Shown here piece after piece: positions 16,560 through 57,859 of a stretch of 64,000 nucleotides of DNA. This stretch comes from Deltaproteobacteria bacterium. GTDB lineage: Bacteria > Desulfobacterota > Syntrophia > Syntrophales > JACQWR01. Position numbers and translations under genes: made by a program. Position 1 is the first letter of the stretch. Each line of letters starts with the position of its first letter. The stretch is from assembly GCA_016209105.1 (NCBI GenBank), contig JACQWR010000027.1:1497-65496 (forward strand). Reading direction: 5' to 3'. The notes under the pieces were generated by a model. The model was not told the DNA's origin, did no database searches, and saw nothing but the letters and a program-made list of their open reading frames with translations.

Positions 16560-17873
<1,314 letters not shown>

Positions 17874-32627: not shown

Positions 32628-32794
32628 GAGGTTAAGGACAAGTCTGCCGAATGGCCCTCAAAAATGTCTGCTCGGTATTGCCAAATCCCTGAAAACAATA
32701 TCCTGCGCCACGCTGAACAGACATCCGGGAAAGCCCCCTTATCTTACCGCCGGAAATATCTGTCGGCACCCCCACATCTTGTGGCCATTTTTTC

Positions 32795-32823
32795 TTGACA
32801 CACAACTCACTTTTCCCTACACT
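32795..32823 (+). promoter_or_regulatory. candidate sigma-70 promoter of the UPF0200-type kinase gene
   Basis: TTGACA (32795-800), a 17-nt spacer, then TACACT (32818-23), preceded by a T-run and 46 nt upstream of ATG 32869. Confidence 0.5.
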
Positions 32824-32868
32824 CCCCGAACAAAAAAGCAAGTTCTTATAAAACAGGACAAAAATATC

Positions 32869-33411
32869 ATGAATATCTTCATCATTGTCGGAATGCCCGC
32901 CTCGGGCAAAAACATTGCCCGGACCTATGCAGAGTCCCAAAAATTACCGTATCATGCCACCGGTGACCTCGTGAGGGCAGAGCTCGCGAAGAGGGGTATC
33001 AAGCCGGACCCTGAGAGCATGGCCCGGATTTCCGATGAATTGCGGGGGCCGGACGGCATGGGTGTCACCCGGCTTGCTCTGGCGGCTGCCCTTGCGGAAA
33101 GCGCCGGAGCCGTCTTTCTCGAAGGCATGAGATCGTGGCCCGAGATAGACCTGATCCGGAAAGAGGCCGAGTGCGTGGTCGTGGCTTTTCTTTCCCCCCG
33201 GCAGGTCAGGAGGATGCGGGTGATCAGTCGGGGCAGGTCTGACGACTCACCCGATGCCTTCGATGGGCGAGACCTGAGGGAGATCGCCTATGGGGTGGGA
33301 GGCCCTGTCGCCATGGCCGATGCCTATGTCCTGAACACCGGCTCCCTGGATGATTCCCTCCATGCCCTGGACGGCATCGTCCAGGAAGCGATTGGAAATA
33401 CGGGGATATAA
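32869..33411 (+). CDS. P-loop nucleotide kinase-like protein, archaeal UPF0200/dephospho-CoA-kinase-like type
   Basis: 180 aa. MNIFIIVGMPASGKN Walker A, TGDLVRAELAKRG, RGRSDDSPDAFDGRDLREIAYGVGG...MADAYVLNTGS. Only the last 180 codons of ORF-track entry 32167-33411 look coding. Confidence 0.6.
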   Translation: MNIFIIVGMPASGKNIARTYAESQKLPYHATGDLVRAELAKRGIKPDPESMARISDELRGPDGMGVTRLALAAALAESAGAVFLEGMRSWPEIDLIRKEAECVVVAFLSPRQVRRMRVISRGRSDDSPDAFDGRDLREIAYGVGGPVAMADAYVLNTGSLDDSLHALDGIVQEAIGNTGI

Positions 33412-33458: not shown

Positions 33459-33536
33459 CCCCCGCTGCTTTCTCGACATCAATAACCCGGAAGATGCACA
33501 GAAGCTCCCGCCGCCGTTTCTCAAAGACAAACCCTG
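33459..33536 (+). pseudogene. relic second copy of the MocA-domain 3' end (direct repeat copy B)
   Basis: Reads in frame PRCFLDINNPEDAQKLPPPFLKDKP-stop, against the native ...PRCFLDIDNTEDAQKLPALEGRASR-stop at 32550-32627. No upstream coding continuation. Confidence 0.75.
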
Positions 33537-36735: not shown

Positions 36736-37292
36736 TTTTTTCCTCCTTTTACAGTTTTATGTTTTTATTGATTGACTTCCCTGATTGACTTCCCTTCTTT
36801 TATTGACCGCCGGTAATAATCCACCTCCTTTCGCCTGTTTCATAAAAAATCCTGTTTGTAATTCTGATGAACGAATTTTGCCCCTATCGAAATTTTTCCA
36901 AGATGCATGAACGGCATGTCGTTCTTTTGTTGTGCATAAGTTACTGTTCACGGTAATGAAAATCAATTAGGATTAAATAAGAGCGTAATAGGAGGGGAAA
37001 ACTATCAGTAAAAACACCCCTCCGATACCGGGTAGGTTGCCCGAAACAAGAAGTTGACAAAAACCATCCCGTTTGATAGCAGTGAAACCCCTGCCCACGG
37101 GGCGGAGTTTCCCGGTAAGGCTTAGCTGTTTTCATTGCGCCCCCGCAACCCCGCTCATAAAGCAGCGTTGCACGGTACGCACCCGGTCATGCACATCCGT
37201 TAAAGTGATTGCCGCCTTCCGGAGATGTCCCCTGGCAGCCAATATCTTTAATTTATAGCGATTTAATCCTTTTGTTGTAAAACAGAAAGAAG

Positions 37293-38294
37293 ATGCATCC
37301 TATGTTCAACAGTACATTGATAGAAGTGGCGGAAAAAACCCTGGCAAATAACGGCTTCCGCATTTCCTACGAGGATGGATGCGGGCTCGCCGCCCTTCCC
37401 GAAGAGGAAACAACGGCGCTGATCCTGTGCGCCGATAAGATCCGCAGGAAATATAAGGGAGACCGCATCACCACCTGTTCCATAACGAACGCCAAATCAG
37501 GCCTGTGCACGGAAGATTGTGCATTCTGCGCCCAGTCGGCCCATCACGAAACGGGCATCGAACCCCATCCCCTCATGAGTGAAGAGGAAATGGTAAATGA
37601 TGCGCTCAAGCTTCATGCCAGCGGCGCCAATGAGTTTTCCATGGTGACGAGCGGTTTCGCGCTCACGGATCAGGAACTGGAAACGATCGGCAGAGCAGCG
37701 GGCATGATAAAGGAAAAAACCGGGTTGAAACTCTGTTCCTCCCTGGGTGTGCTTACAGAAGCACGGGCCAAACAGCTCAAGAATAGCGGCATCAGCCGCT
37801 ACCACCATAACCTGGAAACCGCGCGGAGTTTCTTTGATCACGTATGCACCACCCATGATTATGAAGACGACGTGCAGACGGTGAAAATAGCAAAGGCGGC
37901 CGGCTTGAAAGCCTGCTCGGGCGGCATCCTGGGACTGGGTGAATCGTGGGAACAGCGGGTGGAGCTGGCAATCACCCTGCGGGACCTGGATGTGGATTCG
38001 ATTCCCGTCAACTTCCTGAACCCCATTCCCGGAACGAGGATGGGAGCGCGACCGCTCCTCTCCCCCATGGAAGCGCTCAAATGCATCGCTCTTTTCCGCT
38101 TCATCAATCCGAAGAAGGATATCATGATCTGCGGCGGCAGGGAGGTAACCCTGCGCGACCTCCAGTCCTGGATCTTCACGGCGGGCGCAAACGGCCTGCT
38201 CATCGGCAATTACCTGACCACCGCGGGCAGGGATATCAAGGCGGATATGGACATGATCAGAGATCTGAGATTAGTCGCCGAGAAAGGAGCTTGA
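37293..38294 (+). CDS. bioB: biotin synthase
   Basis: 333 aa. Radical SAM CTEDCAFCAQS, SSLGVL, YHHNLET and GLKACSGGILGLGES. The start could be ATG 37293 or 37302. Confidence 0.92.
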   Translation: MHPMFNSTLIEVAEKTLANNGFRISYEDGCGLAALPEEETTALILCADKIRRKYKGDRITTCSITNAKSGLCTEDCAFCAQSAHHETGIEPHPLMSEEEMVNDALKLHASGANEFSMVTSGFALTDQELETIGRAAGMIKEKTGLKLCSSLGVLTEARAKQLKNSGISRYHHNLETARSFFDHVCTTHDYEDDVQTVKIAKAAGLKACSGGILGLGESWEQRVELAITLRDLDVDSIPVNFLNPIPGTRMGARPLLSPMEALKCIALFRFINPKKDIMICGGREVTLRDLQSWIFTAGANGLLIGNYLTTAGRDIKADMDMIRDLRLVAEKGA

Positions 38295-38370
38295 CACGAA
38301 AACGAAAGAAACTCGCACGAGCACGCTCGACGAGGACGATAAAAAATATATCTGGCATCCCTTCACCCAG

Positions 38371-39669
38371 ATGCGGGATTACGTGAAGGAAAAACCGCTG
38401 ATCATCGAGGAAGGCAACGGATGCACCTTACGGGACACCGACGGGAACGAATATCTGGACGGTGTCTCCTCTCTGTGGACAAACGTGCACGGCCACCGCA
38501 GGGAGGGGATAGACCGCGCCGTTAAGACGCAGCTGGGCAAGATCGCCCACTCGACCATGCTGGGACTCTCCAATGTTCCCGCCATCCGGTGCGCAAAGAA
38601 GCTGGTGGAAATCGCACCACAGGGACTGTCAAAGGTGTTCTATTCGGACAACGGCTCCACGGCGGTGGAGATCGCCCTCAAGATGGCCTTCCAGTACCAG
38701 CAGCAGGCTCCCGCAGGAGACCGGGCGAAGACGCGGTTTATTTCCCTGACCAATGCCTATCACGGAGACACGATCGGCGCGGTAAGCGTGGGTGGCATTG
38801 ACCTCTTTCACGCCACGTACAAAACGCTCCTCTTCTCCTCACTCAAGGCCGAATCGCCCTACTGCTACCGGTGCGTATTTGGAAAATCCTACCCCGACTG
38901 CGGCCTTGCCTGTCTCGGGCAGATGGAAGAACTGATGAAAAAGCATGCACATGAGGCGGCGGCGCTGATTATCGAACCACTCGTGCAGGGGGCGGCGGGG
39001 ATCATCGTCCAGCCTCCGGGCTATCTAAAGAGGGTGCGCGAACTCTGCACCCGGTACAACATCATCATGATCGCCGACGAGGTCGCCGTGGGATTCGGCA
39101 AAACGGGGACAATGTTCGCCTGCGAACACGAGGACGTCGCGCCCGATATCATGGCCGTGGCCAAGGGAATCACCGGCGGTTACCTGCCGCTCGCGGCAAC
39201 GCTCGCCACGGAAAAAATCTATGAAGGGTTCCTCGGCGAGTACGACGAGTTCAAGACCTTTTTCCACGGGCACACCTACACCGGCAACCCGCTCGCCTGT
39301 GCTGCTGCCGTGGCCAGCCTGGAGATTTTTGAGGAAGAGCGCACCCTCGAAGGACTCCAGGGGAAAATCAAACACCTCACGGAGCGACTGGAGTCCTTCC
39401 GTTCCCTGAAGCACGCGGGAGAGGTGCGGCAGCGCGGCTTCATGGTAGGCATAGAACTGGTAGTCGGGAAGGATACCAGAGAACCCTTTGCCCCGGCAGA
39501 GAAGATCGGCCACCGGATCATCCTCGAGGCGAGGAAACGCGGCCTGATTATCAGGCCCCTCGGCAACGTTATCGTCCTGATGCCGCCCTTGAGCATGACC
39601 ACGAGCGAGCTTGACCGTCTCTGCGACATCACCTTCGCGGCGATCCGGGCCGTCACGGAAGGGTTGTAG
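38371..39669 (+). CDS. bioA: adenosylmethionine-8-amino-7-oxononanoate aminotransferase
   Basis: Class-III aminotransferase: DEVAVGFGKTGTMFA and the PLP-Lys region MAVAKGITGGYLPL. Coordinates start at the first ATG, but the conserved DKKYIWHPFTQ motif is encoded in frame upstream (38338-38370), so the true start lies between 38275 and 38350. See findings. Confidence 0.85.
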   Translation: MRDYVKEKPLIIEEGNGCTLRDTDGNEYLDGVSSLWTNVHGHRREGIDRAVKTQLGKIAHSTMLGLSNVPAIRCAKKLVEIAPQGLSKVFYSDNGSTAVEIALKMAFQYQQQAPAGDRAKTRFISLTNAYHGDTIGAVSVGGIDLFHATYKTLLFSSLKAESPYCYRCVFGKSYPDCGLACLGQMEELMKKHAHEAAALIIEPLVQGAAGIIVQPPGYLKRVRELCTRYNIIMIADEVAVGFGKTGTMFACEHEDVAPDIMAVAKGITGGYLPLAATLATEKIYEGFLGEYDEFKTFFHGHTYTGNPLACAAAVASLEIFEEERTLEGLQGKIKHLTERLESFRSLKHAGEVRQRGFMVGIELVVGKDTREPFAPAEKIGHRIILEARKRGLIIRPLGNVIVLMPPLSMTTSELDRLCDITFAAIRAVTEGL

Positions 39670-39784
39670 ACGTGACCCTTCACTGCCGCTCTCCTCGCAG
39701 ATACGGCACGTTTAAAACAATGGCATTCCCGCATCCACGGGGATACCATGACGATGGCCGCATGGTTTTTACGTGGGAGTGTCC

Positions 39785-40069
39785 ATGAAGGGAACATTTT
39801 ACTTTGATCCGGCAGACCGGATTTATGCAGACCATTTCCCCGGACGGGCCGTTGTCCCCGGAAGCCTCATTGTCCATGCCTTCCTCCAGGAAGCGCACAG
39901 GGCGGAGGAGTTTGCCGGTGGCCGTTTCCTGGCGGAAGAGTTCCGCTTCACAGAGTTCATAGCGCCGGGCACATATTCTTTCACCATGGAGACCGATAAA
40001 GGCCGCCTGCGGTGCCGGCTCTACCATGAGGGGAAAACGGTGGTTACGGGTTTTTTTAAACCCGAGTGA
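39785..40069 (+). CDS. short hot-dog-fold FabZ-like protein (His-bearing half dehydratase)
   Basis: About 94 aa. ADHFPGRAVVPGSLIVHAFLQ aligns to the FabZ active-site motif [20 protein letters not shown]. GGGAG lies 5 nt upstream of ATG 39785; the ORF track starts at GTG 39773. Confidence 0.65.
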   Translation: MKGTFYFDPADRIYADHFPGRAVVPGSLIVHAFLQEAHRAEEFAGGRFLAEEFRFTEFIAPGTYSFTMETDKGRLRCRLYHEGKTVVTGFFKPE

Positions 40070-40112
40070 TGATATTGTATCGTCTCATTAATAATTGTCA
40101 TATCGGCCCCTT

Positions 40113-40269
40113 CGCCTGCTGTCATTCCGAGCGGAACGAGGAATCTTGTCGTGAAGCTCCCCGCTCACAGGGCGGGGCTTGCGGAGGGCGCCCCCGGTCA
40201 TGCTCGGGGCAGGCTCCGGGGAATATTTTTTCTCTGTAAATATATTCGTTAAGATTTCTCGTTTCACTC
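40113..40269. repeat. MITE-like element, family B, inserted between hot-dog gene and ACP gene
   Basis: 25-nt terminal inverted repeats: gtcattccgagcggaacgaggaatc (40113-37) and gatttctcgtttcactcgaaatgac (40245-69), 21/25 complementary. The internal module gtgaagctccccgctcacagggcggggcttgcggagggcgcccccggtca recurs at 47135-47250. Confidence 0.8.
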
Positions 40270-40333
40270 GAAATGACAGGTTATTCAAATTATTCATGGG
40301 ACATGACACTCTAATGAGAGAGAAAAAAGAGAT

Positions 40334-40687
40334 ATGAACGTTTTTGAAGAAATAAAAAGTATCCTGGCGGAAATCCTCGACGTGGAAGTAAACGAGGTGA
40401 CGCCGGAAAGCTACCTCATCAGGGAGCTGGGAGCCGAATCCATAGACCTCATGGAGCTTGCCGCGGCGCTGAACCAGAGATTCCGTATAGAAGTCAATGA
40501 GGAAGATGTTTTCCTCAGAGAGCTCAGGAACAATCTTGCGGACGCGGAGGCCGCAAAGGGGACGGATCGCTTTCCCTTTCTCACCGCCCGGAGACGGGAA
40601 GAGATCGTCTCCGAACTTGACGGCGGCCCCGTTCTCAAGGTTAAGGACGTGGTAAGTTACGTCACCTGGCAACTGGAAAGGGCATGA
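40334..40687 (+). CDS. acyl carrier protein with an internal about 35-aa insertion
   Basis: 117 aa. The phosphopantetheine site context is IRELGAESIDLMELAAAL. Canonical ACPs are about 75-80 aa. Extra segment LRELRNNLADAEAAKGTDRFPFLTARRREEIVSELDGGPVL lies before the last helix. Confidence 0.75.
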   Translation: MNVFEEIKSILAEILDVEVNEVTPESYLIRELGAESIDLMELAAALNQRFRIEVNEEDVFLRELRNNLADAEAAKGTDRFPFLTARRREEIVSELDGGPVLKVKDVVSYVTWQLERA

Positions 40688-41319
40688 TGTCGTCCCTCGA
40701 CGAACTTCTCATCGAGCGCAGAAGCATCAGAACGTACGGCCCCGAAACACCGCCCGAGGCATGGATCGAACAGATGATTAACCTCGCAGCCCAGGCGCCG
40801 TCATCGGGGAACACCCAGCCCGTCCGGTTCATCCGCGTCAATTCGCCGGAGGTAAAAGCCTCCCTGCAGCGGGCGATGAAATCGGGCCGCGAGCAGTTTC
40901 TGCAGGCGGCGGCAGGTTGCTCCAAGCCGAAAAATCTGAGAAACTGGATAAACGCCTATTACCGTTTTTCGGCGTTCATGTTTCAGGCCCCCGTCCTCAT
41001 CGCCGTGGGAACGGTCGCGCCGGCGTCCGGATTTTCACGTCGGCTTGCAGAGGCCGGTGTGATAGAGGCAGACAAAAAACGGGAATCCGACACGGACATC
41101 GCTGTAGGTTTTGCCCTCCAAAGCTTCATCCTCAAAGGCCAGGAGCTCGGTCTCGGTTCCTGCATATTGACGGCCCCGCTTGTTTTCATCTCCCGGATCG
41201 AGGAACTTCTCGGCGTCAGGGATGTAGAGATCAAATGCTTCCTCACCGTGGGCTTCCCCGGTGAGACGCCGCGGAAACCGAAAAAGAAGGGAGTCGCTGA
41301 TATCTATCGTCAAATATGA
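40684..41319 (+). CDS. nitroreductase-family flavoprotein
   Basis: 211 aa. ERRSIRTYGPE...AAQAPSSGNTQPVRFI signature. ATGA overlaps with both the ACP (upstream) and the KAS (downstream). Confidence 0.75.
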   Translation: MMSSLDELLIERRSIRTYGPETPPEAWIEQMINLAAQAPSSGNTQPVRFIRVNSPEVKASLQRAMKSGREQFLQAAAGCSKPKNLRNWINAYYRFSAFMFQAPVLIAVGTVAPASGFSRRLAEAGVIEADKKRESDTDIAVGFALQSFILKGQELGLGSCILTAPLVFISRIEELLGVRDVEIKCFLTVGFPGETPRKPKKKGVADIYRQI

Positions 41320-42551
41320 GTAACCATGAAACCACATCAAAACGGGTCGTCATCACCGCCATGGGGATTATCTCCTCGCTGGGTAAAACCCCGGAAGAGA
41401 TACTGGCCAGCATAAAAGAAGACCGTACCAGCTTCACCCTGCCGCCCTTCGATCAGAAGATGGTGGTCGCTCCCGTGGAGAATTTTGACCTCCGTAATTT
41501 TACCGGCCCCTTCAAAGACCGGCGCTATCTAAACCGCGGAGCGCAGCTCTCCGTCGCGGCCGCCATTTCCGCCCTGAGAAACAGCAACCTTGATGAAGAG
41601 ACGGCGGCAACGGCCGGCCTTTTCGTCGGTTCCGGCCCGAATTTCGACATCGGCGGTGAGCTCCCCGGCATCCATGCAGGGGAGATCGTCGAAGAAAGTC
41701 TGATGGCCCTCTGGATACTGAGGTTTCTGCCCAATACGGCGGCTTCCACCATTGCCCGGCTTACGGGGATGCACGGGGAAAACCTGACCGTTGCGACCGC
41801 GTGCACCGCCACGCTGCAGGCAATCGGAGAGGCGTTCCGCAAGATAAAGGACGGACACCTCAATCTGGCTCTCGCCGGAGGCGGCGACTCGCGCAACAAT
41901 CCCGGCGGCATCCTTGCCTACCGCAAGGCGAACGCCCTCTTCACCGGCGGTGACGACCCGCAGGCGGCGAGCCGCCCCTTCGATAAAAAACGGAAGGGCT
42001 TTGTGCCCGGGGAGGGAGGCGCCTTTTTCCTCTTGGAAGAGCGTGAGCACGCCCGGAAACGCGGGGCCATGATCTACGGTGAAATCTGCGGGTTCGGCGC
42101 ATCCATGGACGGATACAGCATGACGGCGCCGGACCCCGACGGCAGGTGGGAGGAAGCGGCAGTGCGGGCGGCCCTCGCGGAAGCGGGCATGTCCCCCGCC
42201 GATATCGCCGTCGTTGCCGCGCACGGCACCGGCACCGCACTCAACGACGCTATGGAGGCGGAACTTCTCGCCCGCATCTGGGGAGAAGGACGCACACCCC
42301 GCGTTATTGCGCTGAAGTCATGGATCGGCCACCTGTCGGTCGCCTGCGGGGCCGTGGAGCTCGGCATCTGCCTGACACTCATGAACAGGGGGTGTCTCCC
42401 CCGGATACGGAATCTCGAAGAACCGTGCCGGGATGGAATAAACTTTGTCCGCCGGGAAGAACCCGTTTCCCTCAAGACCCTCCTGGTGGAAAACTTCGGC
42501 TTTGGCGGCCAGAACAGCGCCCTGATCGTAAAAGCGCACGACGGCGCCTGA
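41316..42551 (+). CDS. beta-ketoacyl-ACP synthase, KAS I/II (FabF/FabB-like) type
   Basis: 411 aa. Active-site Cys in VATACTATLQAIGEAF, and His residues in AAHGTGTALND and KSWIGHLSVACG (Cys-His-His triad). Confidence 0.88.
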   Translation: MSNHETTSKRVVITAMGIISSLGKTPEEILASIKEDRTSFTLPPFDQKMVVAPVENFDLRNFTGPFKDRRYLNRGAQLSVAAAISALRNSNLDEETAATAGLFVGSGPNFDIGGELPGIHAGEIVEESLMALWILRFLPNTAASTIARLTGMHGENLTVATACTATLQAIGEAFRKIKDGHLNLALAGGGDSRNNPGGILAYRKANALFTGGDDPQAASRPFDKKRKGFVPGEGGAFFLLEEREHARKRGAMIYGEICGFGASMDGYSMTAPDPDGRWEEAAVRAALAEAGMSPADIAVVAAHGTGTALNDAMEAELLARIWGEGRTPRVIALKSWIGHLSVACGAVELGICLTLMNRGCLPRIRNLEEPCRDGINFVRREEPVSLKTLLVENFGFGGQNSALIVKAHDGA

Positions 42552-42570
42552 CGGGAAAAGCGGGTGATCC

Positions 42571-43071
42571 GTGGAAGACCGGGATATCGTCATTAATACG
42601 GGAATGCCAGGGCTGCAACTGCTCGATGCCATCACGCGCACGGATGAAAACGGCATCGGCGGCGGTTGCCTGTTTTCCGACGCCCCGCCCTGGCTGGGTG
42701 TCGAATCCCTCGCCCGGCTCGGCGCCTTTCATGTGCGCTTCCTCACCGGTTTCGGGAAACACGCCTTCCTGGCAAAGATAAAACGCTGTCTCCTGCCGCG
42801 ACGGGAACCCCTGACGGGCCGGTACCGTCTGACGGGGAAACTTCTCAGCCGGAGCAGTTCCTCGTTTTTCTATGACCTGGAGGCTTGGAACGGGAAGGAA
42901 CTTGAAATTGCCGGTCAATTCCTGTATGCAGCGATTGACTATGACAATGCCTTCAGGAAGGAATTGCTGCAGGATCACTATCAAAGGCGCTTTACATGTT
43001 TGACGAACGCTACCGAAAAAGGCTCCTCTCGAGAAAAGACGCCGGACTTCTCCGTACGCCCCCGGAAATAG
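42571..43071 (+). CDS. hypothetical protein, probable hot-dog fold (Glu-bearing half dehydratase)
   Basis: 166 aa. WLGVESLARLGAFHV aligns to FabZ ILEAMAQATGIL but lacks the HFP His. The downstream pattern FLAKIKRCLLPRREPLTGRYRLTGKLL...LEAWNGKELEIAGQF resembles the hot-dog sheet. The 3' end overlaps bioF by 76 nt. The start could be GTG 42571 or ATG 42604. Confidence 0.45.
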   Translation: MEDRDIVINTGMPGLQLLDAITRTDENGIGGGCLFSDAPPWLGVESLARLGAFHVRFLTGFGKHAFLAKIKRCLLPRREPLTGRYRLTGKLLSRSSSSFFYDLEAWNGKELEIAGQFLYAAIDYDNAFRKELLQDHYQRRFTCLTNATEKGSSREKTPDFSVRPRK

Positions 43072-44153
43072 CAAGCCGGGAGGGAAAGTATATATGGATC
43101 GGCGGGAGAAAGGTGCTCAATTTCTCTTCCAACGACTACCTGGGACTCGGCGTCTCGGAAAAGCTCCGACAAAAGGTTTCCCGCAATTTCCGGAAATACG
43201 GCACCTCGTCCTCGGCCTCGCGGCTTGTCTCCGGCAACTATGCGGTGATCTCCCGCGCGGAAGAGGAATATGCCCGCTACTTCGGCTACGAGGCCGCCCT
43301 GTTCTTCCCCAGCGGTTACCAGGCGAATCTCGGCATCCTCTCCGCCCTCTTCGAAAAGGGCGACTCTCTGTTCTTCGACAAACATCTCCACGCGAGCAGC
43401 GTGAAGGGAATGGTTTTAAGCGGGGCATCCTTCCAGGGATACAACCACAATTCCCTCTCCCACCTGCGCCGGCGTCTGGAGGCAGGCAGGGGGCGCCAGA
43501 CTGCTGTCCTGACGGAATCGCTCTTCAGCATGGACGGTGATTTCCTCGACGTTCAGGGGTTCGGCACATTGAAACGTGATTACGGTTTCCTTGCCGTCGT
43601 GGATGAAGCGCACGCCTTCGGCGCCGTGGGAGACGGAGGCCGCGGCATTGCCCGGCCGGTGGCGGATATCGCCGTGGGAACCTTCGGCAAGGCCCTGGGG
43701 CTGTTCGGGGCATTCGTCCTGCTGCCCGCAACAGGGAAGGAATACCTTTTCAATTTTTCCTCGCCCCTCATTTACAGCACCACCCTTCCCGAGGCCCATG
43801 CCGCCTCCGCCCTGGACATACTGGAAATGGTCATTGCGGGCGATAACGCGCGAAAAAATCTACAGGCAGTGAGCCGCGCCATGAAGGAACGGCTGCTCGC
43901 CCAAGGACTCACGGTAACGGGAGACGCCCACATCATCTCCTGGGAGGTAGGCAGTGAAAGCCGCGCCGCGGAAATAGCGGCTGAGCTTCTCGCACGGGAC
44001 ATCTTCGTCTTTCCCGCCCGCTATCCCACGGTGCCCGCGGGCAGGGCTCTGCTCCGGATCGGCATGACTGCCCTGCACACGGAAGAAGACGTACAACACT
44101 TCCTCTGCTGCCTGAAAAATATATGGGAAAAAACGGGGTGGAACAATGAATGA
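42996..44153 (+). CDS. bioF: 8-amino-7-oxononanoate synthase
   Basis: 385 aa. LNFSSNDYLGLG, VDEAHAFGAVG and the PLP-Lys motif VGTFGKALG. Confidence 0.9.
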   Translation: MFDERYRKRLLSRKDAGLLRTPPEIASREGKYIWIGGRKVLNFSSNDYLGLGVSEKLRQKVSRNFRKYGTSSSASRLVSGNYAVISRAEEEYARYFGYEAALFFPSGYQANLGILSALFEKGDSLFFDKHLHASSVKGMVLSGASFQGYNHNSLSHLRRRLEAGRGRQTAVLTESLFSMDGDFLDVQGFGTLKRDYGFLAVVDEAHAFGAVGDGGRGIARPVADIAVGTFGKALGLFGAFVLLPATGKEYLFNFSSPLIYSTTLPEAHAASALDILEMVIAGDNARKNLQAVSRAMKERLLAQGLTVTGDAHIISWEVGSESRAAEIAAELLARDIFVFPARYPTVPAGRALLRIGMTALHTEEDVQHFLCCLKNIWEKTGWNNE

Positions 44154-44838
44154 CCTTTACGTAGCGGGAACCGATACGGGCGTGGGGAAAACGGTGCTGT
44201 CGCTTCTCCTCATGCAGTTTTTGTTCGAGCAGGGCAAGCGGCCCTTTTATCTCAAGCCCCTGCAAACGGGCTGCAAGACCCCCCGTGATGAGGACAGCGA
44301 TGCGGCGTTTATCTACCGGCATGTGGAATCGCTCCGGGACGGGGACCCGGGAGAATCGGTGATTTACTGCTTTGCCAACCCCAAGGCGCCCTTTTTCGCG
44401 GCCCGCGACGAAGGCAGCGCCATAGACCTGAAACTCATGGAACGGATCGTGGCGGAAAAAAGCCGCGCCTACTCGCCGCTTGTCATCGAAGCGGCCGGGG
44501 GTGTCCTGGTTCCGGTTGCGGAAGGAACGCTGATCGTGGACATCATGCAAACCACGGGGGCAAAGGTCCTGATTGCCGCCCGCGCCGGCCTGGGCACGAT
44601 CAACCACACCCTACTGTCTATAGAAGCCCTACAGGCACGGGGAATAAAGCCCGCAGCCATCATCTTCATAGATGCAGCGGAAACGCCGCCGGAAATGATC
44701 GCCGAAAACAGGGAGGCGATAGAAGCCTGCTCCGGCATAAAAGTCGCCGGCGTAATCGGCAGGATCGCCGATTTTTCCCATCCTCCCCGCGATAGTTACC
44801 GCCCCATCGAGTTTCTCTTCCGGGAAGGCCTGGTATGA
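44146..44838 (+). CDS. bioD: dethiobiotin synthase
   Basis: 230 aa. P-loop VAGTDTGVGKTV, YLKPLQTGC and IEAAGGVLVP. Overlaps bioF by 8 nt. Confidence 0.9.
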   Translation: MNDLYVAGTDTGVGKTVLSLLLMQFLFEQGKRPFYLKPLQTGCKTPRDEDSDAAFIYRHVESLRDGDPGESVIYCFANPKAPFFAARDEGSAIDLKLMERIVAEKSRAYSPLVIEAAGGVLVPVAEGTLIVDIMQTTGAKVLIAARAGLGTINHTLLSIEALQARGIKPAAIIFIDAAETPPEMIAENREAIEACSGIKVAGVIGRIADFSHPPRDSYRPIEFLFREGLV

Positions 44839-45749
44839 GAAAAACCATCCTTCCCGTCGCCGACCTGCTGAATTTTTTCCTCGCGAGAAAGGTATTCAGA
44901 CAAAAGCCCCCGCTGATTGCAAGCTTCAAACTCACCTATCGGTGCAATCTCGCCTGCCGGACATGCCCTTTCCATCTGCGGGCCAACGAAGAAAACGCGC
45001 ACATGAGCTGGGACGGAGCCGTGAACGCGCTTGCGGCCCTGAAAAATTGCGGAACCCGTATTGTCGTATTCGAGGGGGGGGAACCGCTTCTCTGGCGGGA
45101 TGGCGCGCACGATTTTCCGGAACTCGTTACCTATGCCAAAAAGCTTTTCCTCCGCGTCGGCGTGACCACGAACGGCACGCTGCCTCTCGATGTGCCCGCA
45201 GACGTTCTCTGGGTGAGCCTCGACGGCCTGAAGGAAACACACGACCGGCTCCGCAGCGGCTCGTTCGACCGGGCATGGAACAACCTCCGGGTGACGAAAC
45301 ACCCCAAGGTTTTCGTTCATTTTACGATGAACCGGGAAAACTGGCGGGAACTCGAATATCTGCTTAAACGTCTCGGAGAAATCCCGGCCGTCTGGGGCAC
45401 GACGCTGCAGCTTTTCTATCCCTACGGACAGGGCGAGGAGGCGCTGTCCCTCTCCCCCGCGGAGCGCCGGGAAGCCCTGGAAACAGCCATACGCCTGAAG
45501 AAGAACTATCCCCTCCTGAATTCCCGCAGCGGCCTGAAGGCCATGATCGAGAACACCTGGTCTTGCCATGACGACATCCTCGTCAACGTGGACCCCGGCG
45601 GTACAATCACGAGCGGATGTTATGTGAAAAACCGCGGCACGATCAGCTGCCGCGATTGCGGTTTCACGCCAGTCACGGAGGCCTCCGGCGCCCTCGATCT
45701 GTCTGTCCCTTCCCTCTTCGCCGGCTGGCGCATCTTTCTCCAGACTTGA
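44835..45749 (+). CDS. radical SAM protein of unassigned function, translationally coupled to bioD
   Basis: 304 aa. FKLTYRCNLACRTCPF (CxxxCxxC), FEGGEPLL, and C-terminal auxiliary Cys residues (SCHDD...SGCYVKNRGTISCRDCGF). ATGA overlap with the bioD stop. Confidence 0.8.
   Translation: MRKTILPVADLLNFFLARKVFRQKPPLIASFKLTYRCNLACRTCPFHLRANEENAHMSWDGAVNALAALKNCGTRIVVFEGGEPLLWRDGAHDFPELVTYAKKLFLRVGVTTNGTLPLDVPADVLWVSLDGLKETHDRLRSGSFDRAWNNLRVTKHPKVFVHFTMNRENWRELEYLLKRLGEIPAVWGTTLQLFYPYGQGEEALSLSPAERREALETAIRLKKNYPLLNSRSGLKAMIENTWSCHDDILVNVDPGGTITSGCYVKNRGTISCRDCGFTPVTEASGALDLSVPSLFAGWRIFLQT
45714..45743 (+). repeat. direct repeat copy A (native 3' end of the radical SAM gene)
   Basis: ctcttcgccggctggcgcatctttctccag recurs at 48366-48395 with 29/30 identity. 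Confidence 0.85.
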
Positions 45750-45865
45750 TTCCAATTGAAGATTTTCACAGCGTGCTGCGGAGAGCTTCACTGCGCTCCC
45801 CTCAGATTCCTCCCCCTTGATGAGGGAGGATAGGTGGGGGTGCCTGATATGCTGCTCACCATCCT

Positions 45866-46750
45866 TTATAGGTGATTATCCGCAAGACCTGTCGGCAGCA
45901 TTTGAGCGATTTTTTCCAAAGTCCATTTATCTTCCCCACGGTAAATCACCGATGTTCTTTCCGGTTCTGAATAAAGGCTGATCATACCCGCGCCTACAAA
46001 GAATGTCCTGCCCGTTATGAGAGCTGCATTTTCTGTTGCCAGATACGTTGCAAACGTAGCGACATCTTCCGGCTTTGAATTTTCCATCTCATTCAGTTCG
46101 CTGATTTTCCCCTGTCGGATCCATGCTTGTTTCCGCTTTTCGTCAAAATGACGTGTCAGCGCCAGAGGGCGTATCGCATTGCACGTTACATTATATTTTG
46201 CCATATCTCTGGCAACAGCTCTTGTGAAACCGATAACACCTTCTTTTGCTGCAGCGTAATTTGAACACCCTAATGTTTTTCCCAGTCCTGCTCCCGATGA
46301 CATGTTGATAATCCGCCCATATTGATTCTGCTTCATAACTTCAGCGGCCGCCCTCGTACAATAGAACGTCCCGTATAGATTCACTTTAACGATCTTGTCC
46401 CAGTTTTCTTCGGTAAGATTAAAGATCATCTTATCAAGCACAATGCCGGCATTGTTTACCAGTATGTCCACCCTGCCGAACGTGCCAACCGCGGCGGCGA
46501 TTATATCTCTGCCGCCTTGCCATGTTTCCACTGAACTGTCGTTAGAAACTGCTTCGCCGCCTTCTTTCCGGATTTTTTCAGCCGCTTTTTCCGCTAACCC
46601 TTGGATTTGTCCGGTCCCCGTCGGGCCGACGCCATAATCGTTAACGACTATGCGCGCTCCTTCACGCGCCATTTCCCGTGCTATGGCAAGTCCAATGCCC
46701 TGGCCGGCCCCGGTAATAACAGCTACTCTGTTGTTAAGAAGCTTACTCAT
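45866..46750 (-). CDS. SDR-family oxidoreductase, MFE-2/(3R)-hydroxyacyl-CoA dehydrogenase-like
   Basis: Start at MSKLLNNRVAVITGAGQGIGLAIA. VVNDYG...NNAGI...MSSGAG...YAAAKEG (Ser-Tyr-Lys). The overall pattern resembles the dehydrogenase domain of multifunctional enzyme type 2. The upstream part of the ORF-track entry (to 46900) is a repeat element. Confidence 0.75.
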   Translation of the reverse strand: MSKLLNNRVAVITGAGQGIGLAIAREMAREGARIVVNDYGVGPTGTGQIQGLAEKAAEKIRKEGGEAVSNDSSVETWQGGRDIIAAAVGTFGRVDILVNNAGIVLDKMIFNLTEENWDKIVKVNLYGTFYCTRAAAEVMKQNQYGRIINMSSGAGLGKTLGCSNYAAAKEGVIGFTRAVARDMAKYNVTCNAIRPLALTRHFDEKRKQAWIRQGKISELNEMENSKPEDVATFATYLATENAALITGRTFFVGAGMISLYSEPERTSVIYRGEDKWTLEKIAQMLPTGLADNHL

Positions 46751-46763
46751 ACTATTTGAAGCT

Positions 46764-46871
46764 CTCTGCAGCAAGCTGCAGAGAATCTCCGATTCCTCAG
46801 GAACATCATCGTTCATCATTCGCTCGCTTACCCCTCGGCAAGCCGCGGGGAATGCGCTCGCAGCCGAATTC
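46764..46871 (+). repeat. two-hairpin intergenic repeat, family D, copy 1
   Basis: Hairpin 1 is CTCTGCAGC-aa-GCTGCAGAG (46764-83). Conserved spacer ...gattcctcagg...ttcatcattcgctcgctta. Hairpin 2 is cccctcggcaagccgcgggg (46831-50). Tail aatgcgctcgcagccgaattc. The second copy is at 57742-57850. Confidence 0.8.
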
Positions 46872-47134
46872 CATTTTATTTTTATAATTAGCACAACCAT
46901 AAATCTGACAATCAGATTCGACCGTCAGAGTATAGGATAAGGGAATCTTGTGCGTCAAAGGAAATTTGGCGGCAAAACAGGCAATACCGAACGGAACGTT
47001 GCGAAAAGAATCGCGGCGCAATCAACCGTCGCGACCGCGGCTTCACCCCGGTAAGGGAGGCCTTGATTCAATTTCCCCCGTGGGCTGATTCCGAAAACAT
47101 GAAGGGTGAGCAGCGCCGGTAAGGCTTCCAGAAA

Positions 47135-47250
47135 GTGAAGCTCCCCGCTCAGAGAGCGGGGCTTCCCGGCAAGGAACATTTATTTTCCTCATCGCGCCCC
47201 TTAACCCCGCCTGAAAGGCGGGGCTTGCGGAGGGCGCCCCCGGTCACCAT
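47135..47250. repeat. family B internal module (no terminal inverted repeats)
   Basis: gtgaagctccccgctcagagagcggggctt...ccccgcctgaaaggcggggcttgcggagggcgcccccggtca shares the core of the 40113-40269 element with an internal duplication. It forms the last about 30 codons of the lipoprotein ORF. Confidence 0.7.
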
Positions 47251-48240
47251 GCCGTCTTCGGCGCCTTCCCGCACAGGGGGTGTCGTCGGCCCCTTCTCAC
47301 GCAGCCGGATAACGATCCCCCGGATCAGGACATCGGGAGAGTCGTCCGGAGTCGTCAGCAGGTGCGAGAAGTTCCTGGAGAAGCTCTCCGTGTAGGAGAA
47401 TTCGACCTGATCAAGCTTCAAGCTTTGCTTGCAGAGGTCGAATTCCCTTTGGTCCTTCAGAATCTCCCAGAAGTTTCTTCCCCCGAGATGGAGGGCCGAG
47501 ACCGTCAGGCCCGCAAAAAAGGTGAGGCTCGGCAGGGCAGACAGGCCGATATCGCCGCTGAAGTGCATCCCCTCGTTGAGGCGTTTGTCGGCTTTCTTGG
47601 CCGCCGCCTTATCGGGGGATGCCTCCAGGATCAGTTCGATCTCGATCTCATCACTGTCCTTGATGTATTTATCGTAGTCGGTCGCGATCTCCTGGAGGAT
47701 CGGCAGGGCCTTCTGGACCGCCTCCACCAGGGCGCCAACATAGAAATGACGCGGCAGGGCAAACTCGCCCCGATCGCGCTGCGCCTTGGCGGCCCTGAAA
47801 AAGTTCGGTTGATCCCCCTCCAGGCGAAGCCGGACATGATAAAGAACATGGCTGTGCAACACGACCGTGTCGTCCTCGAAGATCTCAAAATCGGCCGCCA
47901 ACTCGATCCCTTTGCAGTGCTTGAAATTAGTGTCCAGGTTGCAGAAAGGCGCCTCTGGCTGGACGGGGAGGTAGAACTCCGGAAAGGCGTTACGGAAGAG
48001 TTTCATGAGCCCCGGGACATCGAGGCCGTCGAGTCCGGGATTGCCGGTCTTCGCCCGTGTGAGATATTCGGCCAGGGTACCCTGGCCGTCCGGAAACAGC
48101 TGGAACCGGTAAGTACCCGGCTTGCCGAGAGTGGGTTCCTTATAGATCCGGGCGGCCGGTGTTCGGGCTTTAACCGTGCAGCCCGCCGCCAAGCCTATTA
48201 GCAGGATCAGGATCAGTAGTCGCCTGGTTCGTCTGGTCAA
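47149..48240 (-). CDS. lipoprotein of unknown function
   Basis: 363 aa. Lipobox LLIGLAAGC after the basic N-terminus MTRRTRRLL. No recognisable family. The C-terminal tail is encoded by repeat sequence. Confidence 0.6.
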   Translation of the reverse strand: MTRRTRRLLILILLIGLAAGCTVKARTPAARIYKEPTLGKPGTYRFQLFPDGQGTLAEYLTRAKTGNPGLDGLDVPGLMKLFRNAFPEFYLPVQPEAPFCNLDTNFKHCKGIELAADFEIFEDDTVVLHSHVLYHVRLRLEGDQPNFFRAAKAQRDRGEFALPRHFYVGALVEAVQKALPILQEIATDYDKYIKDSDEIEIELILEASPDKAAAKKADKRLNEGMHFSGDIGLSALPSLTFFAGLTVSALHLGGRNFWEILKDQREFDLCKQSLKLDQVEFSYTESFSRNFSHLLTTPDDSPDVLIRGIVIRLREKGPTTPPVREGAEDGMVTGGALRKPRLSGGVKGRDEENKCSLPGSPAL

Positions 48241-48323: not shown

Positions 48324-48422
48324 ATGCAGGAATTCATTAGCCAACGCATTCCCCGTGGCTTGCCGCTCTTCGCCGGATGGCGCATCTTTCTCCAGGCCGG
48401 ATATTTCCTTCTGACAGTTTGA
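48324..48422 (+). pseudogene. relic copy of the radical SAM gene 3' end (direct repeat copy B)
   Basis: Reads ...PRGLPLFAGWRIFLQAGYFLLTV-stop, against the native ...DLSVPSLFAGWRIFLQT-stop at 45749. Only the last about 12 codons are homologous. Confidence 0.65.
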
Positions 48423-52359: not shown

Positions 52360-53469
52360 CTATTTCCTCGGCTCGTAGACGCAGAAGGGCTCTTCGGCAA
52401 GGTAGTCGCCGGTGATCTCGTAGGCGCGGGCGCGGCAGCCGCCGCAAACGCGGATGAATTCGCACCGACCGCACTTGCCGCCGTAGCGGTTCAGATCGCG
52501 CAGATTTTTGAAGATGGGTGTGTTTGCCCAGATCTCCCCGAAATTCGCTTCCTTCACCTGGCCGCAATCCAAATCCAGGTAGCCGCAGGGCTGCACCTGC
52601 CCCGTATGGGAGATGAAGCAGAAGGAACTGCCGCCCATGCAACCCCGCGTCATGGCGTGCAGCGCGCTTGCACCCGCTGCGCCGTGTTTCGCCGCCGCCC
52701 GTGTCGCCATTTGGGCCGGGCCTTTCTTCTGGTGGAAGATGCGGAAGTAGTGGGGCGCACAGGTTGCCTTAAGCTGGATGGGGGCGCGCAAGCTCTCCTC
52801 GTAGAACCAGTTCAGGGTCTCTTCGTATGCCTGGGGCGGAATTTCCTGGTCGGCCATCTCCTTGCCCCGTCCCGTGGGCACAAGCAGGAAGATGTGGTGG
52901 GCTGCAGCCCCGATTTTGATCGCCAGATCGAATATACCCTTGATCTGGCCCAGGTTCGCCTTCGTGATCGTGGTGTTGATCTGGAATTCGAGGCCCGCCT
53001 TTTTCATCGCCTCGATGCCGGCCATGCTGCCGGCGAAGGCCCCGGGCACCTTGCGGAAGGCGTCATGGCTGGCGGCGTCCAGGCCATCAATGCTGATGCT
53101 GACCCGCTGGATCCCGGAGGCGATCATCCGGCCGGCGACCTCCTCCGTCACCAGGGTGCCGTTCGTGGCCATGACCATCCTGAGCCCCTTGGCAGTGCCG
53201 TAGGAGGCGATCTCGAAGATGTCCTGCCGCAGGAGCGGTTCCCCGCCGGTCAGGATAATCACCGGCGTGCTGAAGGCGGCAATCTCGTCGAGGAGCTTTT
53301 TGCACTGGTCCGTATCGAGTTCTCCCCGGTAAGGCCCGCATTCCGCAGAGGCGCGGCAATGGACGCAGGCAAGGTTGCAGCTCCGCGTCGTCTCCCAGGC
53401 CACCATCCGCAGCGTATCCGGCAGGAGCGGCAGGTTTCTTCCTCTTGATTCTGTCTTTGTCTCTGTCAT
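52360..53469 (-). CDS. radical SAM/SPASM heme-biosynthesis enzyme, AhbD (or AhbC/NirJ)-like
   Basis: 369 aa. [25 protein letters not shown] and the C-terminal SPASM region [22 protein letters not shown]...[20 protein letters not shown]. Embedded in the tetrapyrrole gene block. Confidence 0.6.
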
Positions 53470-54440: not shown

Positions 54441-54452
54441 ATCATCCTCCTT

Positions 54453-54868: not shown

Positions 54869-54902
54869 ACTCAGATGCTCCTCCCTACAGGGTAGTCTTG
54901 TA

Positions 54903-57850: not shown

Positions 57851-57859
57851 AGCAGCCTG

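Follow-up and report, generated by a model that had tools for sequence, protein, structure and literature searches.

A Desulfovibrio-type biotin operon in a Syntrophales bacterium, with a likely dedicated pimeloyl-ACP module and a lineage-specific radical SAM gene

Positions 37293-45749 of the window (the whole 64,000-nt stretch of DNA analysed) are likely to form a single biotin operon, of "Desulfovibrio type", in which a private type II FAS-like module replaces BioC/BioH and builds pimeloyl-ACP for BioF. Ten ORFs, all on the + strand, were verified in this region in the order given in Table 1. Adjacent genes are connected by 4-nt ATGA overlaps (-4) at ACP/NTR, NTR/KAS and bioD/rSAM; the other junctions are bioF/bioD (-8), hd2/bioF (-76), KAS/hd2 (+19) and hd1/ACP (+264). 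These coordinates and distances bore out the gene order, co-direction and overlaps claimed in the earlier note.

Table 1. Genes and spacer of the biotin operon, with supporting matches
Feature	Position	Strand	Evidence
bioB, biotin synthase (radical SAM + BATS domain)	37293..38294	+	TIGR00433 400 bits (cut-off 225); PF04055, PF06968
bioA, adenosylmethionine-8-amino-7-oxononanoate transaminase	38371..39669	+	TIGR00508 537 bits (cut-off 405)
hd1 (hot-dog-1), truncated FabZ-like hot-dog protein, 94 aa	39785..40069	+	profile match to FabZ
hd1/ACP spacer, 264 nt	40070..40333		site of FabG-like SDR in relatives
Dedicated acyl carrier protein (ACP), 117 aa	40334..40687	+	PF00550 (PP-binding) 43 bits
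Nitroreductase-fold flavoprotein (NTR)	40684..41319	+	PF00881 102 bits
KAS I/II-type beta-ketoacyl-ACP synthase (KAS)	41316..42551	+	PF00109, PF02801 (ketoacyl-synt N and C domains)
hd2 (hot-dog-2), hot-dog-fold protein, 166 aa	42571..43071	+	AF2 model + Foldseek
bioF, 8-amino-7-oxononanoate synthase	42996..44153	+	best NCBIfam match TIGR00858 325 bits, below cut-off 426; PF00155
bioD, dethiobiotin synthase	44146..44838	+	TIGR00347 136 bits (cut-off 83)
Radical SAM enzyme (rSAM)	44835..45749	+	PF04055 53 bits

The order hd1-(FabG)-ACP-NTR-KAS-hd2-bioF-bioD was strongly conserved in 80 further species from Syntrophales, Desulfobacterales, Desulfarculales and SAR324, and in essentially all of them the embedded genes lay between bioA and bioF. 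With this gene order recurring in 80 other species, the arrangement is far from chance. Both hd1 and ACP were found in 66/68 related loci and hd2 in 70/71; NTR was located between ACP and KAS in 63/69 loci, and bioF directly followed hd2 in 62/65. Eleven relatives that either had the FabG-type cluster or were more distant were tested for a BirA operator, and 9 of them had one upstream of bioB. In the window and its close relatives, the region upstream of bioB yielded no such operator, and no birA adjoins the window's operon. The bioA-bioF position, the operators of relatives and the genetics of D. vulgaris support the proposal of a dedicated pimeloyl-ACP module tied to biotin.

The closest known system is that of D. 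vulgaris, for which RB-TnSeq evidence (Trotter 2023, PMC10102598) showed that DVU2558-2565 and the nitroreductase DVU1220 are needed specifically when biotin is lacking. bioC/bioH are absent in this strain (DvH), no radical SAM gene besides bioB is required, and nitroreductase-containing clusters were noted in Syntrophobacter and Desulfobacter (PMC10102598). As in the window, the genes between bioA and bioF in the D. vulgaris cluster include one for a dedicated ACP, one for a FabF-like KAS and two for FabZ-like hot-dog proteins, one of the two hot-dog genes being unannotated in both. The variant of Syntrophobacter fumaroxidans and Desulfobacter vibrioformis also shares a nitroreductase-like gene inside the cluster. 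D. vulgaris-type systems and the window have no bioC/bioH nearby and belong to anaerobic Desulfobacterota hosts. The embedded genes are presumably homologous to DVU2560-2563, judging from the architecture and from the paper's placing of the Syntrophobacter/Desulfobacter clusters in the same class. However, the window's cluster lacks a FabG-like 3-oxoacyl-ACP reductase (the DVU2561 equivalent), a recognisable BirA operator and a birA beside the operon, and has a radical SAM gene translationally coupled to bioD; its nitroreductase is without the Fe-S motif ascribed to DVU1220.

Two small proteins of the module appear to share one catalytic function. As a single sequence, hd1 gave only sub-threshold FabA/FabZ matches; a profile of 15 orthologues matched solved FabZ structures (best 3d6x, E=9e-7), and its orthologues matched PF22818 (ApeI-like). 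In the orthologue alignment, its D-H-F-P-G-x-x-V-P-G motif with catalytic His17 was invariant, whereas the FabZ Glu position was variable. No sequence-family match was detected for hd2 in profile searches. Its hot-dog fold was confirmed at the level of an AF2 model (core pLDDT 84-93), for which the top Foldseek matches were amxFabZ, C. jejuni FabZ and P. falciparum FabZ (E ~2e-5, rmsd 2.3-3.3 A). This protein is often missed by gene callers (uncalled in L086, L088 and the P0070 contig). Its Glu45, part of an E-S-L-A-Q-L-G-A motif resembling the FabZ central helix, is invariant; the protein has no His motif, and a sub-threshold profile match to amxFabZ pairs Glu with Glu. The fact that the FabZ His is present in hd1 only and the Glu in hd2 only suggests a heterodimeric 3-hydroxyacyl-ACP dehydratase to which hd1 would contribute His and hd2 Glu; from the complementary motifs and the folds, we infer that the two form a complex. 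Hot-dog dehydratases that act as heterodimers are found in type II systems, e.g., ApeI/ApeP of aryl-polyene synthesis and mycobacterial HadAB/HadBC. These also have two different small hot-dog proteins per cluster, with catalytic residues not all on one chain; the split proposed for hd1/hd2 differs in being deduced from motifs and in involving a protein, hd2, without a detectable sequence family.

ACP, with Ser36 within LGAESID, scored below every NCBIfam ACP cut-off and, compared to E. coli AcpP, has a ~40-aa insertion with conserved YPFL and GPVLKVKD motifs (72 orthologues aligned). KAS is divergent from housekeeping FabF, given that its score against the fabF model (294 bits) is far below the cut-off of 494; its Cys163/His303/His339 triad and Lys334 are intact (invariant alignment columns; alignment to FabF 4jrh). 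The nearest solved structures to NTR are 3gfa, BluB-like proteins and iodotyrosine deiodinase, with a weak match to the enone reductase CLA-ER (4qlx). By elimination, NTR is a candidate enoyl-ACP reductase; CLA-ER, a nitroreductase-fold enone reductase, provides a precedent for C=C reduction. Such a role for the cluster nitroreductase was proposed before (PMC10102598).

One FAS activity is missing. A FabG-like SDR (~247 aa) occurs between hd1 and ACP in 62/66 relatives (94%), yet it is absent from the window cluster, and a search of the spacer for a FabG-like gene detected no remnant. Within the spacer, a short intergenic repeat (40159-40200) is followed by a hairpin that resembles a terminator (40203-40220). 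Cluster FabG was lost at least three times independently. The module is thus not self-sufficient, and the "mini-FAS" described in the earlier note is incomplete within the operon: its ACP, KAS, hot-dog and NTR genes were confirmed, but the note had missed the ketoreductase gap.

In the proposed route, the specialised ACP (Ser36) would be malonylated by an acyltransferase encoded outside the operon. The FabF-like KAS would then extend a dicarboxylic primer with a free omega-carboxyl, from malonyl to 3-oxoglutaryl and, after reduction, from glutaryl to 3-oxopimeloyl, as proposed by Trotter et al. Ketoreduction would be carried out by the cluster SDR in most relatives; in its absence here, housekeeping FabG or another SDR must substitute. 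Dehydration may occur in a composite hd1/hd2 active site of His17 and Glu45, and enoyl reduction would fall to the nitroreductase-fold flavoprotein, after which BioF, BioA, BioD and BioB would finish the pathway. To our knowledge, there is no chemical precedent for a KAS I/II enzyme accepting a primer whose omega-carboxylate is free, which counts against the proposal.

The last gene of the operon required separate consideration. rSAM has a C37xxxC41xxC44 motif and four invariant C-terminal Cys residues (244, 262, 272 and 275), the latter probably binding an auxiliary Fe-S cluster. Its best NCBIfam match, the PTO1314 family, scored 120 bits, far below the cut-off of 306, and Foldseek with its AF2 model (pLDDT 84.6) returned generic twitch/SPASM radical SAM enzymes. 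Among clusters of 47 other species with at least 1.2 kb of sequence beyond bioD, none had rSAM near bioD. The bioD-rSAM pair was kept in 6/6 sampled members of two robust rSAM subgroups (win, 2/2; p20, 4/4; bootstraps 40/40 and 36/40). The 4-nt overlap was conserved in L086, L087/88 and L092, and measured 7 nt in the P0070 contig. In L096/97, bioD and rSAM were adjacent without overlap in a cluster reduced to ACP-bioF-bioD-rSAM. In the window's clade alone, rSAM truly belongs to the operon and is translationally coupled to it. It probably has an accessory role or is simply co-expressed; a core catalytic role in pimelate formation is less likely.

We see about an even chance that rSAM is a housekeeping enzyme unrelated to biotin, which was appended to the bio operon's 3' end a single time, in this clade's ancestor, and persists via translational coupling. 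The family is large and highly conserved (>1500 homologues, >120 clusters at >=62% identity, mean column identity 72%) and occurs in varied genomic contexts: homologues at 72% and 70% (UbiA), at 67% and 62% (HemN-like/DnaJ) and in P0099 are not bio-linked. Its divergence parallels that of bioD and KAS of the same genomes (66-70%), and union of the bio-linked groups received only 10/40 bootstraps; with deep branching unresolved, the tree may simply mirror species phylogeny. However, the overlap was kept through two independent cluster rearrangements and total loss of flank synteny, and neutral drift usually preserves less.

The same persistence speaks for a reading that we consider possible but doubtful, namely that in this clade rSAM itself takes part in biotin synthesis. 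Its substrate would be an intermediate carried by the dedicated ACP, and it would stand in for, or circumvent, some of the FAS-like steps, e.g., by an O2-independent step toward pimeloyl-ACP. The pairing with bioD outlasted the loss of hd1, NTR, KAS and hd2 in L096/97, and it also withstood the arrival of toxin-antitoxin genes between bioD and bioF. Flanking genes differ in every locus, so conservation is confined to the operon level. All rSAM-linked clusters are without cluster FabG, and this reading would explain both the ketoreductase-less clusters and the ACP-bioF-bioD-rSAM relative. One homologue is convergent to bioA-bioF (CP113000.1). A Syntrophus sp. MAG has an rSAM-family homologue elsewhere (P0103). 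In other Syntrophus genomes (L055-57), whose clusters lack FabG, no radical SAM gene lies within 10 kb of the cluster. On the other hand, of the three independent FabG losses only one lineage has a linked rSAM, all bio-linked cases may go back to one event in the ancestor of a single clade of organisms, and neither fold nor sequence gives a substrate clue. We know of no radical SAM enzyme that reduces a ketone, and our literature search found no supporting link. A role in biotin synthesis is unproven because close homologues (62-72%) sit in unrelated contexts. The earlier note's inclusion of rSAM in the module is not supported, given its absence from the other species' clusters, its restriction to one clade and the D. 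vulgaris requirements. BioI, a P450, and BioE, a diiron oxygenase (PMC12704756), generate pimelate by cleaving long acyl chains in a reaction that depends on O2. These enzymes are relevant only to a speculative alternative source of pimeloyl-ACP from rSAM and ACP; they need O2, there is no homology, and nothing here points to C-C cleavage.

A further reading, which we judge unlikely, concerns the primer: KAS would act in BioZ style, taking a ready-made C5 dicarboxyl thioester and condensing it once with malonyl-ACP rather than running two malonyl rounds. The thioester would be glutaryl-CoA or glutaryl-ACP, supplied by the catabolism of benzoyl-CoA or lysine and abundant in syntrophs. Such a primer would sidestep the malonyl-primer problem, and FabG-less variants do occur in Syntrophus and allied syntrophs, whose benzoate and crotonate metabolism runs via glutaryl-CoA and 3-hydroxypimeloyl-CoA. 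BioZ, an alpha-proteobacterial enzyme using glutaryl-CoA (PMC7645780, PMC8024396), is likewise a dedicated condensing enzyme toward pimeloyl-ACP without BioC/BioH. However, it is a KAS III/FabH-type enzyme (Cys-His-Asn) that relies on housekeeping KR, DH, ER and ACP, whereas the window KAS is of the I/II type (Cys-His-His, nearest structure FabF) with its own ACP, DH and reductase; a single round would still require KR, DH and ER, and the operon has no glutaryl-CoA-forming gene. That the embedded genes make an unrelated lipid or polyketide merely housed in the bio operon, as weak sub-threshold similarity of ACP, hd1 and KAS to AmcB, AmcE and AmcF (type II PKS-like proteins of the cispentacin system) might suggest, is highly improbable in view of the invariant bioA-bioF position and the BirA operators of relatives, and is effectively refuted by the biotin-specific fitness defect of every D. 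vulgaris cluster gene (PMC10102598).

Canonical routes were also considered. In E. coli, BioC-BioH use housekeeping FAS and ACP, with the omega-carboxyl disguised as a methyl ester. Like the proposed module, this route takes a malonyl primer through two FAS-type elongation rounds to pimeloyl-ACP for BioF; the module differs in having no methyltransferase or esterase, and the enzymes and carrier of its own (ACP, KAS, DH, reductase) can presumably cope with a carboxylate left free. A scan of ~45 ORFs in the 64-kb window found no BioC, BioH-type, BioW, BioI or BioZ homologue, in agreement with the earlier note. The only pair of a methyltransferase-fold and an alpha/beta-hydrolase gene (13747-15586) proved to be MetW/MetX, both above equivalog cut-offs.

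The core pathway is not new. It was predicted by Rodionov in 2004 (PMC545781) and supported genetically by Trotter in 2023, and the earlier note's treatment of it as uncharacterised overlooked genetic evidence available since 2021/2023, including that on the nitroreductase-in-cluster variant (PMC10102598). What is new is a lineage-specific version, in which the ketoreductase gene was lost and a radical SAM gene was gained at the operon end, together with the predicted split of the FabZ catalytic residues between hd1 and hd2.

The earlier note had read the genes embedded in the biotin operon as a dedicated module for pimeloyl-ACP assembly, with the radical SAM enzyme among its parts. This interpretation was partly supported: the dedicated module stood, and a core role of the radical SAM protein was disfavored. 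The main inference was correct yet not new, because two studies precede it. Five fatty acid synthase (FAS)-like genes were described in the Desulfovibrio bio operon and a novel pimeloyl route was proposed (Rodionov et al. 2004, PMC545781). RB-TnSeq later revealed a specific requirement, in the absence of biotin, for DVU2558-DVU2565 together with the nitroreductase DVU1220 (Trotter et al. 2023, PMC10102598; preprint 2021). The nitroreductase-like gene lies within the cluster in Syntrophobacter/Desulfobacter and is unlinked, as DVU1220, in D. vulgaris (DvH) (PMC10102598). No biochemical follow-up of the DVU genes was found in the literature searched. The system in the window is a variant of this known, biochemically uncharacterized pathway: it lacks the ketoreductase and a BirA operator and carries a radical SAM gene (rSAM).

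All ten co-directional ORFs of the operon proposed in the earlier note were real, and the ATGA overlaps at the ACP/nitroreductase-fold (NTR), NTR/KAS (condensing enzyme) and bioD/rSAM junctions were as it had described them; bioF and bioD overlap by 8 nt, and the second hot-dog gene (hd2) and bioF by 76 nt. Scores above the cut-offs of curated models were obtained for bioB (TIGR00433, 400 bits), bioA (TIGR00508, 537 bits) and bioD (TIGR00347, 136 bits), and the best model match of bioF was sub-threshold (325 bits, cut-off 426). The note's claim that the window has no BioC, BioH-type esterase, BioW, BioI or BioZ also held, as none was present among the ~45 ORFs scanned in the 64 kb. The window has a single pair of a methyltransferase fold and an overlapping alpha/beta-hydrolase; it was considered as BioC/BioH and rejected, because the genes are MetW, at 221 bits against an equivalog cut-off of 189.5, and MetX, at 506 bits against 331. 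Unlike the BioC-BioH system, the operon contains neither a malonyl-ACP O-methyltransferase nor a pimeloyl-ACP methyl ester esterase. Short G+C-rich intergenic repeats were also detected; one copy lies within the spacer between the first hot-dog gene (hd1) and ACP, the position of FabG in relatives, and adjoins a terminator-like hairpin. A direct repeat of 50 nt (32550-32599 and 33460-33509; 90% identity, spacing 910 nt) lies close to the 3' part of the ORF 32167-33411.

Features of the window discussed in the text
Feature	Position	Strand	Remark
Third radical SAM gene	1309-2052	-
MetW/MetX pair	13747-15586		metW overlaps metX
Methionine cluster	13747-17858	-	metW, metX, PALP enzyme, O-acetylhomoserine sulfhydrylase-like gene
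Region upstream of bioB	36736-37292		no BirA operator found
Lone operator half-site	~37051		GTTGACAA
Biotin operon	37293-45749	+	bioB to rSAM
hd1	39785-40069	+	94 aa
First repeat	40159-40200 / 47205-47246		88% identity; first copy in hd1-ACP spacer
Terminator-like hairpin	40203-40220
hd2	42571-43071	+	166 aa
rSAM	44835-45749	+
37-nt duplication	45714-45750 / 48366-48402		89% identity
Convergent SDR	45866-46900	-
Second repeat	46812-46849 / 57792-57829		95% identity
Lipoprotein-like gene	47149-48240
AhbD heme b synthase	52360-53469		571 bits, cut-off 500
Tetrapyrrole cluster	52360-59128	-	hemA, hemC, cobA/hemD fusion, hemB, AhbD

Conservation of gene order was assessed from a KAS orthologue alignment, which retrieved 80 loci from distinct species (KAS identity 55-65%) of Syntrophales/Syntrophaceae (including Syntrophus buswellii DM-2), Smithella, Syntrophobacteraceae, Desulfobacterales, Desulfarculales and SAR324. 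Using tblastn with the window's proteins, we found a nearly invariant order, [bioB][bioA]-hd1-X-ACP-NTR-KAS-hd2-bioF-bioD, so that the embedded set recurs together with bioF and bioD across the 80 species. Counting only loci that span the relevant position, hd1 and ACP were each present in 66/68 loci, NTR between ACP and KAS in 63/69, hd2 in 70/71 and bioF in 62/65. At X, 62/66 loci had an SDR of ~247 aa, which is the Desulfovibrio cluster's FabG-like ketoreductase. As in the Desulfovibrio-type pathway, the window cluster has a specialized ACP gene (PF00550), a FabF-like KAS with an intact catalytic triad, two FabZ-like hot-dog genes (equivalents of DVU2560 and DORF42491) and an NTR-like protein (PF00881, 102 bits), whereas the FabG-like 3-oxoacyl-ACP reductase (DVU2561 equivalent) is missing; the correspondence with the DvH proteins is one of architecture, and the KAS scan returned only relatives of at least 55% identity, none of which was Desulfovibrio.

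Some loci departed from the common arrangement. Eight (L034, L046, L051, L073, L074, L077, L078 and L080), mostly labeled Desulfobacterales or Desulfobacteraceae, had no bioA upstream of hd1; in them bioD was followed by another type of bioA, which shares 36-38% identity with that of the window. A bacterial hd1-FabG-ACP-NTR-KAS cluster (KAS identity 61%) was also present in L062 (JBQVLY010000058.1), labeled 'Methanosarcinaceae archaeon'; this locus probably reflects contamination during binning and not a true archaeal occurrence.

KAS is a two-domain protein that scored 294 bits against the fabF equivalog model, far below the cut-off of 494. Its triad Cys163/His303/His339 and Lys334 are complete, invariant in 14 orthologues and matched to the FabF triad in the alignment, and its nearest solved relatives are FabF/FabB enzymes; it is therefore of the KAS I/II type. 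BioZ, in contrast, is a FabH-like KAS III with a Cys-His-Asn triad, whereas the window protein has ketoacyl-synt N and C domains and a Cys-His-His triad. ACP carries Ser36 in an LGAESID motif and, relative to E. coli AcpP, an insertion of ~40 residues, more than a mere C-terminal tail, that is family-specific across 72 orthologues. The insertion contains conserved YPFL and GPVLKVKD motifs and could serve as a docking element. The closest matches of NTR were flavoproteins of the BluB-like and iodotyrosine deiodinase types, and the enone reductase CLA-ER was matched weakly. It is a candidate enoyl-ACP reductase, an assignment made by elimination here and by Trotter et al. (PMC10102598).

The two hot-dog proteins appear to be complementary. 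In hd1, a D-H-F-P-G-x-x-V-P-G motif is invariant and the position of the FabZ catalytic Glu is variable; its profile matched solved FabZ structures (E=9e-7). In hd2, Glu45 is invariant within E-S-L-A-Q-L-G-A. No Pfam or NCBIfam family was matched by hd2, even across 17 orthologues, and a PDB profile search reached only E=0.49, the sub-threshold match pairing Glu45 with the FabZ catalytic Glu. An AF2 model built from a 7-sequence alignment had hot-dog topology (mean pLDDT 69.6, core 84-93), and Foldseek placed FabZ dehydratases first (E ~2e-5, rmsd 2.3-3.3 A) and thioesterases of the hot-dog fold next. The possibility that hd1 and hd2 are paralogues was rejected, with an hhalign probability of 3% and no detectable homology. 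In the FabZ homodimer, the two chains share each active site, one supplying His and the other Glu. Given this layout, the complementary motifs suggest, at the level of sequence, that hd1 and hd2 form a heterodimer with one composite site, to which hd1 would contribute His and hd2 Glu. The hd2 gene, which overlaps bioF, was often missed in gene calling (L086, L088 and the contig of the rSAM homologue P0070), echoing the unannotated DORF42491 of D. vulgaris.

The missing ketoreductase distinguishes the window from most relatives. Neither a remnant or pseudogene of the cluster FabG in the 264-nt hd1-ACP spacer nor an orthologue elsewhere in the 64-kb window was detected. The KAS tree distributed the FabG-less clusters over three distinct lineages (that of the window, Syntrophus L055-57, and L026), implying that the cluster ketoreductase was lost at least three times. 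Among cultivable carriers, Syntrophus buswellii DM-2 has the FabG-less form. Its step may have been taken over by the housekeeping FabG. A convergent SDR gene next to rSAM was rejected as the missing enzyme because its similarity to the cluster FabG is only generic (<=30%, 1e-7). This gene was absent downstream of rSAM in L086, L087, L096 and the P0070 contig. In addition, the last 37 nt of rSAM are duplicated 2.65 kb downstream, with similarity ending within ~45 nt, and the two copies bracket the SDR and a lipoprotein-like gene, which suggests that the duplication is the scar of a later insertion at the operon 3' end that included the SDR. As a separate observation, six clusters (L017, L034, L066, L073, L074 and L082) had no NTR gene between ACP and KAS, so NTR, too, is dispensable in cis. 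Starting from malonyl-ACP, the module as a whole would run two elongation rounds in which the omega-carboxylate is free. Gene identities, catalytic motifs, folds, conservation and operon structure come here from the window and its relatives, and the requirement for the cluster genes in growth without biotin comes from the literature, for D. vulgaris only (PMC10102598).

A BirA operator, TTGT[A/C]AACC-N14-16-GGTTGACA[A/T], was found upstream of bioB in 9 of the 11 FabG-type or more distant relatives tested (L007, L008, L009, L011, L013, L014, L026, L050 and L053). An exact search found none in the window, and a degenerate search found none upstream of bioB in the window, L086, L087 or L096; upstream of bioB the window has a lone half-site.

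Among species whose sequence extends at least 1.2 kb past bioD, 0 of 47 had the radical SAM gene in the locus, and nothing else was conserved after bioD except the relocated bioA in eight loci. Homologues of the window's rSAM protein were linked to bioD in several other genomes.

Genomic context of radical SAM homologues (identity to the window's protein)
Context	Protein	Identity	Locus or remark
bioD-linked	window
bioD-linked	P0007	75%	L092
bioD-linked	P0047	69%	L087/88
bioD-linked	P0086	68%	L086
bioD-linked	P0020	68%	L096/97
bioD-linked	P0070	66%	bioF and bioD separated by inserted toxin-antitoxin genes; bioD/rSAM overlap kept
Convergent to bioA-bioF	P0118	62%	L001-3
UbiA neighbor	P0008	72%
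UbiA neighbor	P0010	70%
HemN-like and DnaJ-domain neighbors	P0029	67%
HemN-like and DnaJ-domain neighbors	P0100	62%
No bio genes nearby	P0099		L098

In all rSAM-linked clusters the cluster FabG is missing, and the flanking genes are different in each. This conserved pairing despite differing flanks shows that the bioD-rSAM linkage is real and maintained at the operon level. The most reduced arrangement, bioB-bioA-ACP-bioF-bioD-rSAM, was found in L096 (1355-7179) and L097, a close relative with bio genes 67-75% identical; bioD and rSAM are adjacent there without overlap, and hd1, NTR, KAS and hd2 are absent within the 17 kb examined. The bio-linked proteins split into two subgroups, both of them robust (bootstraps 40/40 and 36/40). 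A single bio-specific clade was suggested by an NJ tree and discarded, the bootstrap of the union being only 10/40. Judged by the identity of their bio genes (67-82%), all carriers come from one organismal clade, and the linkage may trace to a single ancestral event. Among homologues that are not bio-linked (L089, L090, L094 and L098), genes for an AMP-binding enzyme and for a ~280-aa alpha/beta-hydrolase were repeatedly encountered a few genes away, and two of these loci had a UbiA prenyltransferase directly upstream; such neighbors may hint at the general role of the family.

The rSAM protein has a CxxxCxxC motif (C37/C41/C44) and four invariant C-terminal Cys residues (C244/C262/C272/C275), and its AF2 model (pLDDT 84.6) matched SkfB, BlsE, viperin, MoaA and anSME in Foldseek. 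With this motif, a partial TIM barrel and a Cys-rich C-terminal domain, it is twitch/SPASM-like; an attempt to derive its function from the fold yielded generic twitch/SPASM relatives only. The family is large and conserved (>1500 homologues, >120 clusters at >=62% identity). Unlike the AhbC/AhbD/NirJ and PTO1314 families, the bioD-linked protein scored below the NCBIfam equivalog cut-offs (PTO1314, the best, 120 vs 306; AhbC 69 vs 650; AhbD 55 vs 500). Identity with AhbD was rejected, as the true AhbD of this genome lies in a tetrapyrrole cluster, implying a siroheme-dependent heme route. For a third radical SAM gene of the window, the best-matching families were 'mobile pair protein B' and PA0069, all hits being below cut-off. 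Nothing further on radical SAM enzymes with pimeloyl-ACP, or on PTO1314/TIGR03961, was found in the literature searched.

We favor an accessory or unrelated role for the rSAM gene, with about an even chance that it is a hitchhiker. A true function in biotin synthesis is possible but doubtful: the bioD-rSAM coupling is conserved and the ACP-only cluster retains the gene, but against a core role FabG was lost elsewhere without an rSAM gene alongside, close homologues sit in other contexts, and we know of no radical SAM chemistry that could stand in for ketoreduction. It is unlikely that in this clade the bioD-linked protein is an unrecognized biotin-precursor enzyme that acts on the dedicated ACP and supplies or completes pimeloyl-ACP anaerobically, so that the cluster could do without its ketoreductase and the lineage of L096/L097 even without the entire KAS/dehydratase/NTR set; if true, this would be a fifth solution to the pimelate problem, radical-based and O2-independent. 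The idea that rSAM replaced FabG is weakened because FabG was lost independently three times and a linked rSAM occurs in one lineage only.

For strict anaerobes that lack BioC/BioH, BioW, BioI, BioZ and BioE, a candidate pathway to pimelate has been on record since 2004, with genetic support in one Desulfovibrio only. This locus and its 80 relatives reveal that the module is widespread in syntrophs and sulfate reducers, with highly conserved gene order. New, testable leads come from the subunit model of the dehydratase, the reduced variants that occur in nature and the rSAM linkage specific to one clade. Natural 'knock-out' variants without the ketoreductase, without NTR or with ACP only indicate which parts are dispensable, and the rSAM gene, conserved as a member of the operon in a single clade, is the sole element that could point to new chemistry.
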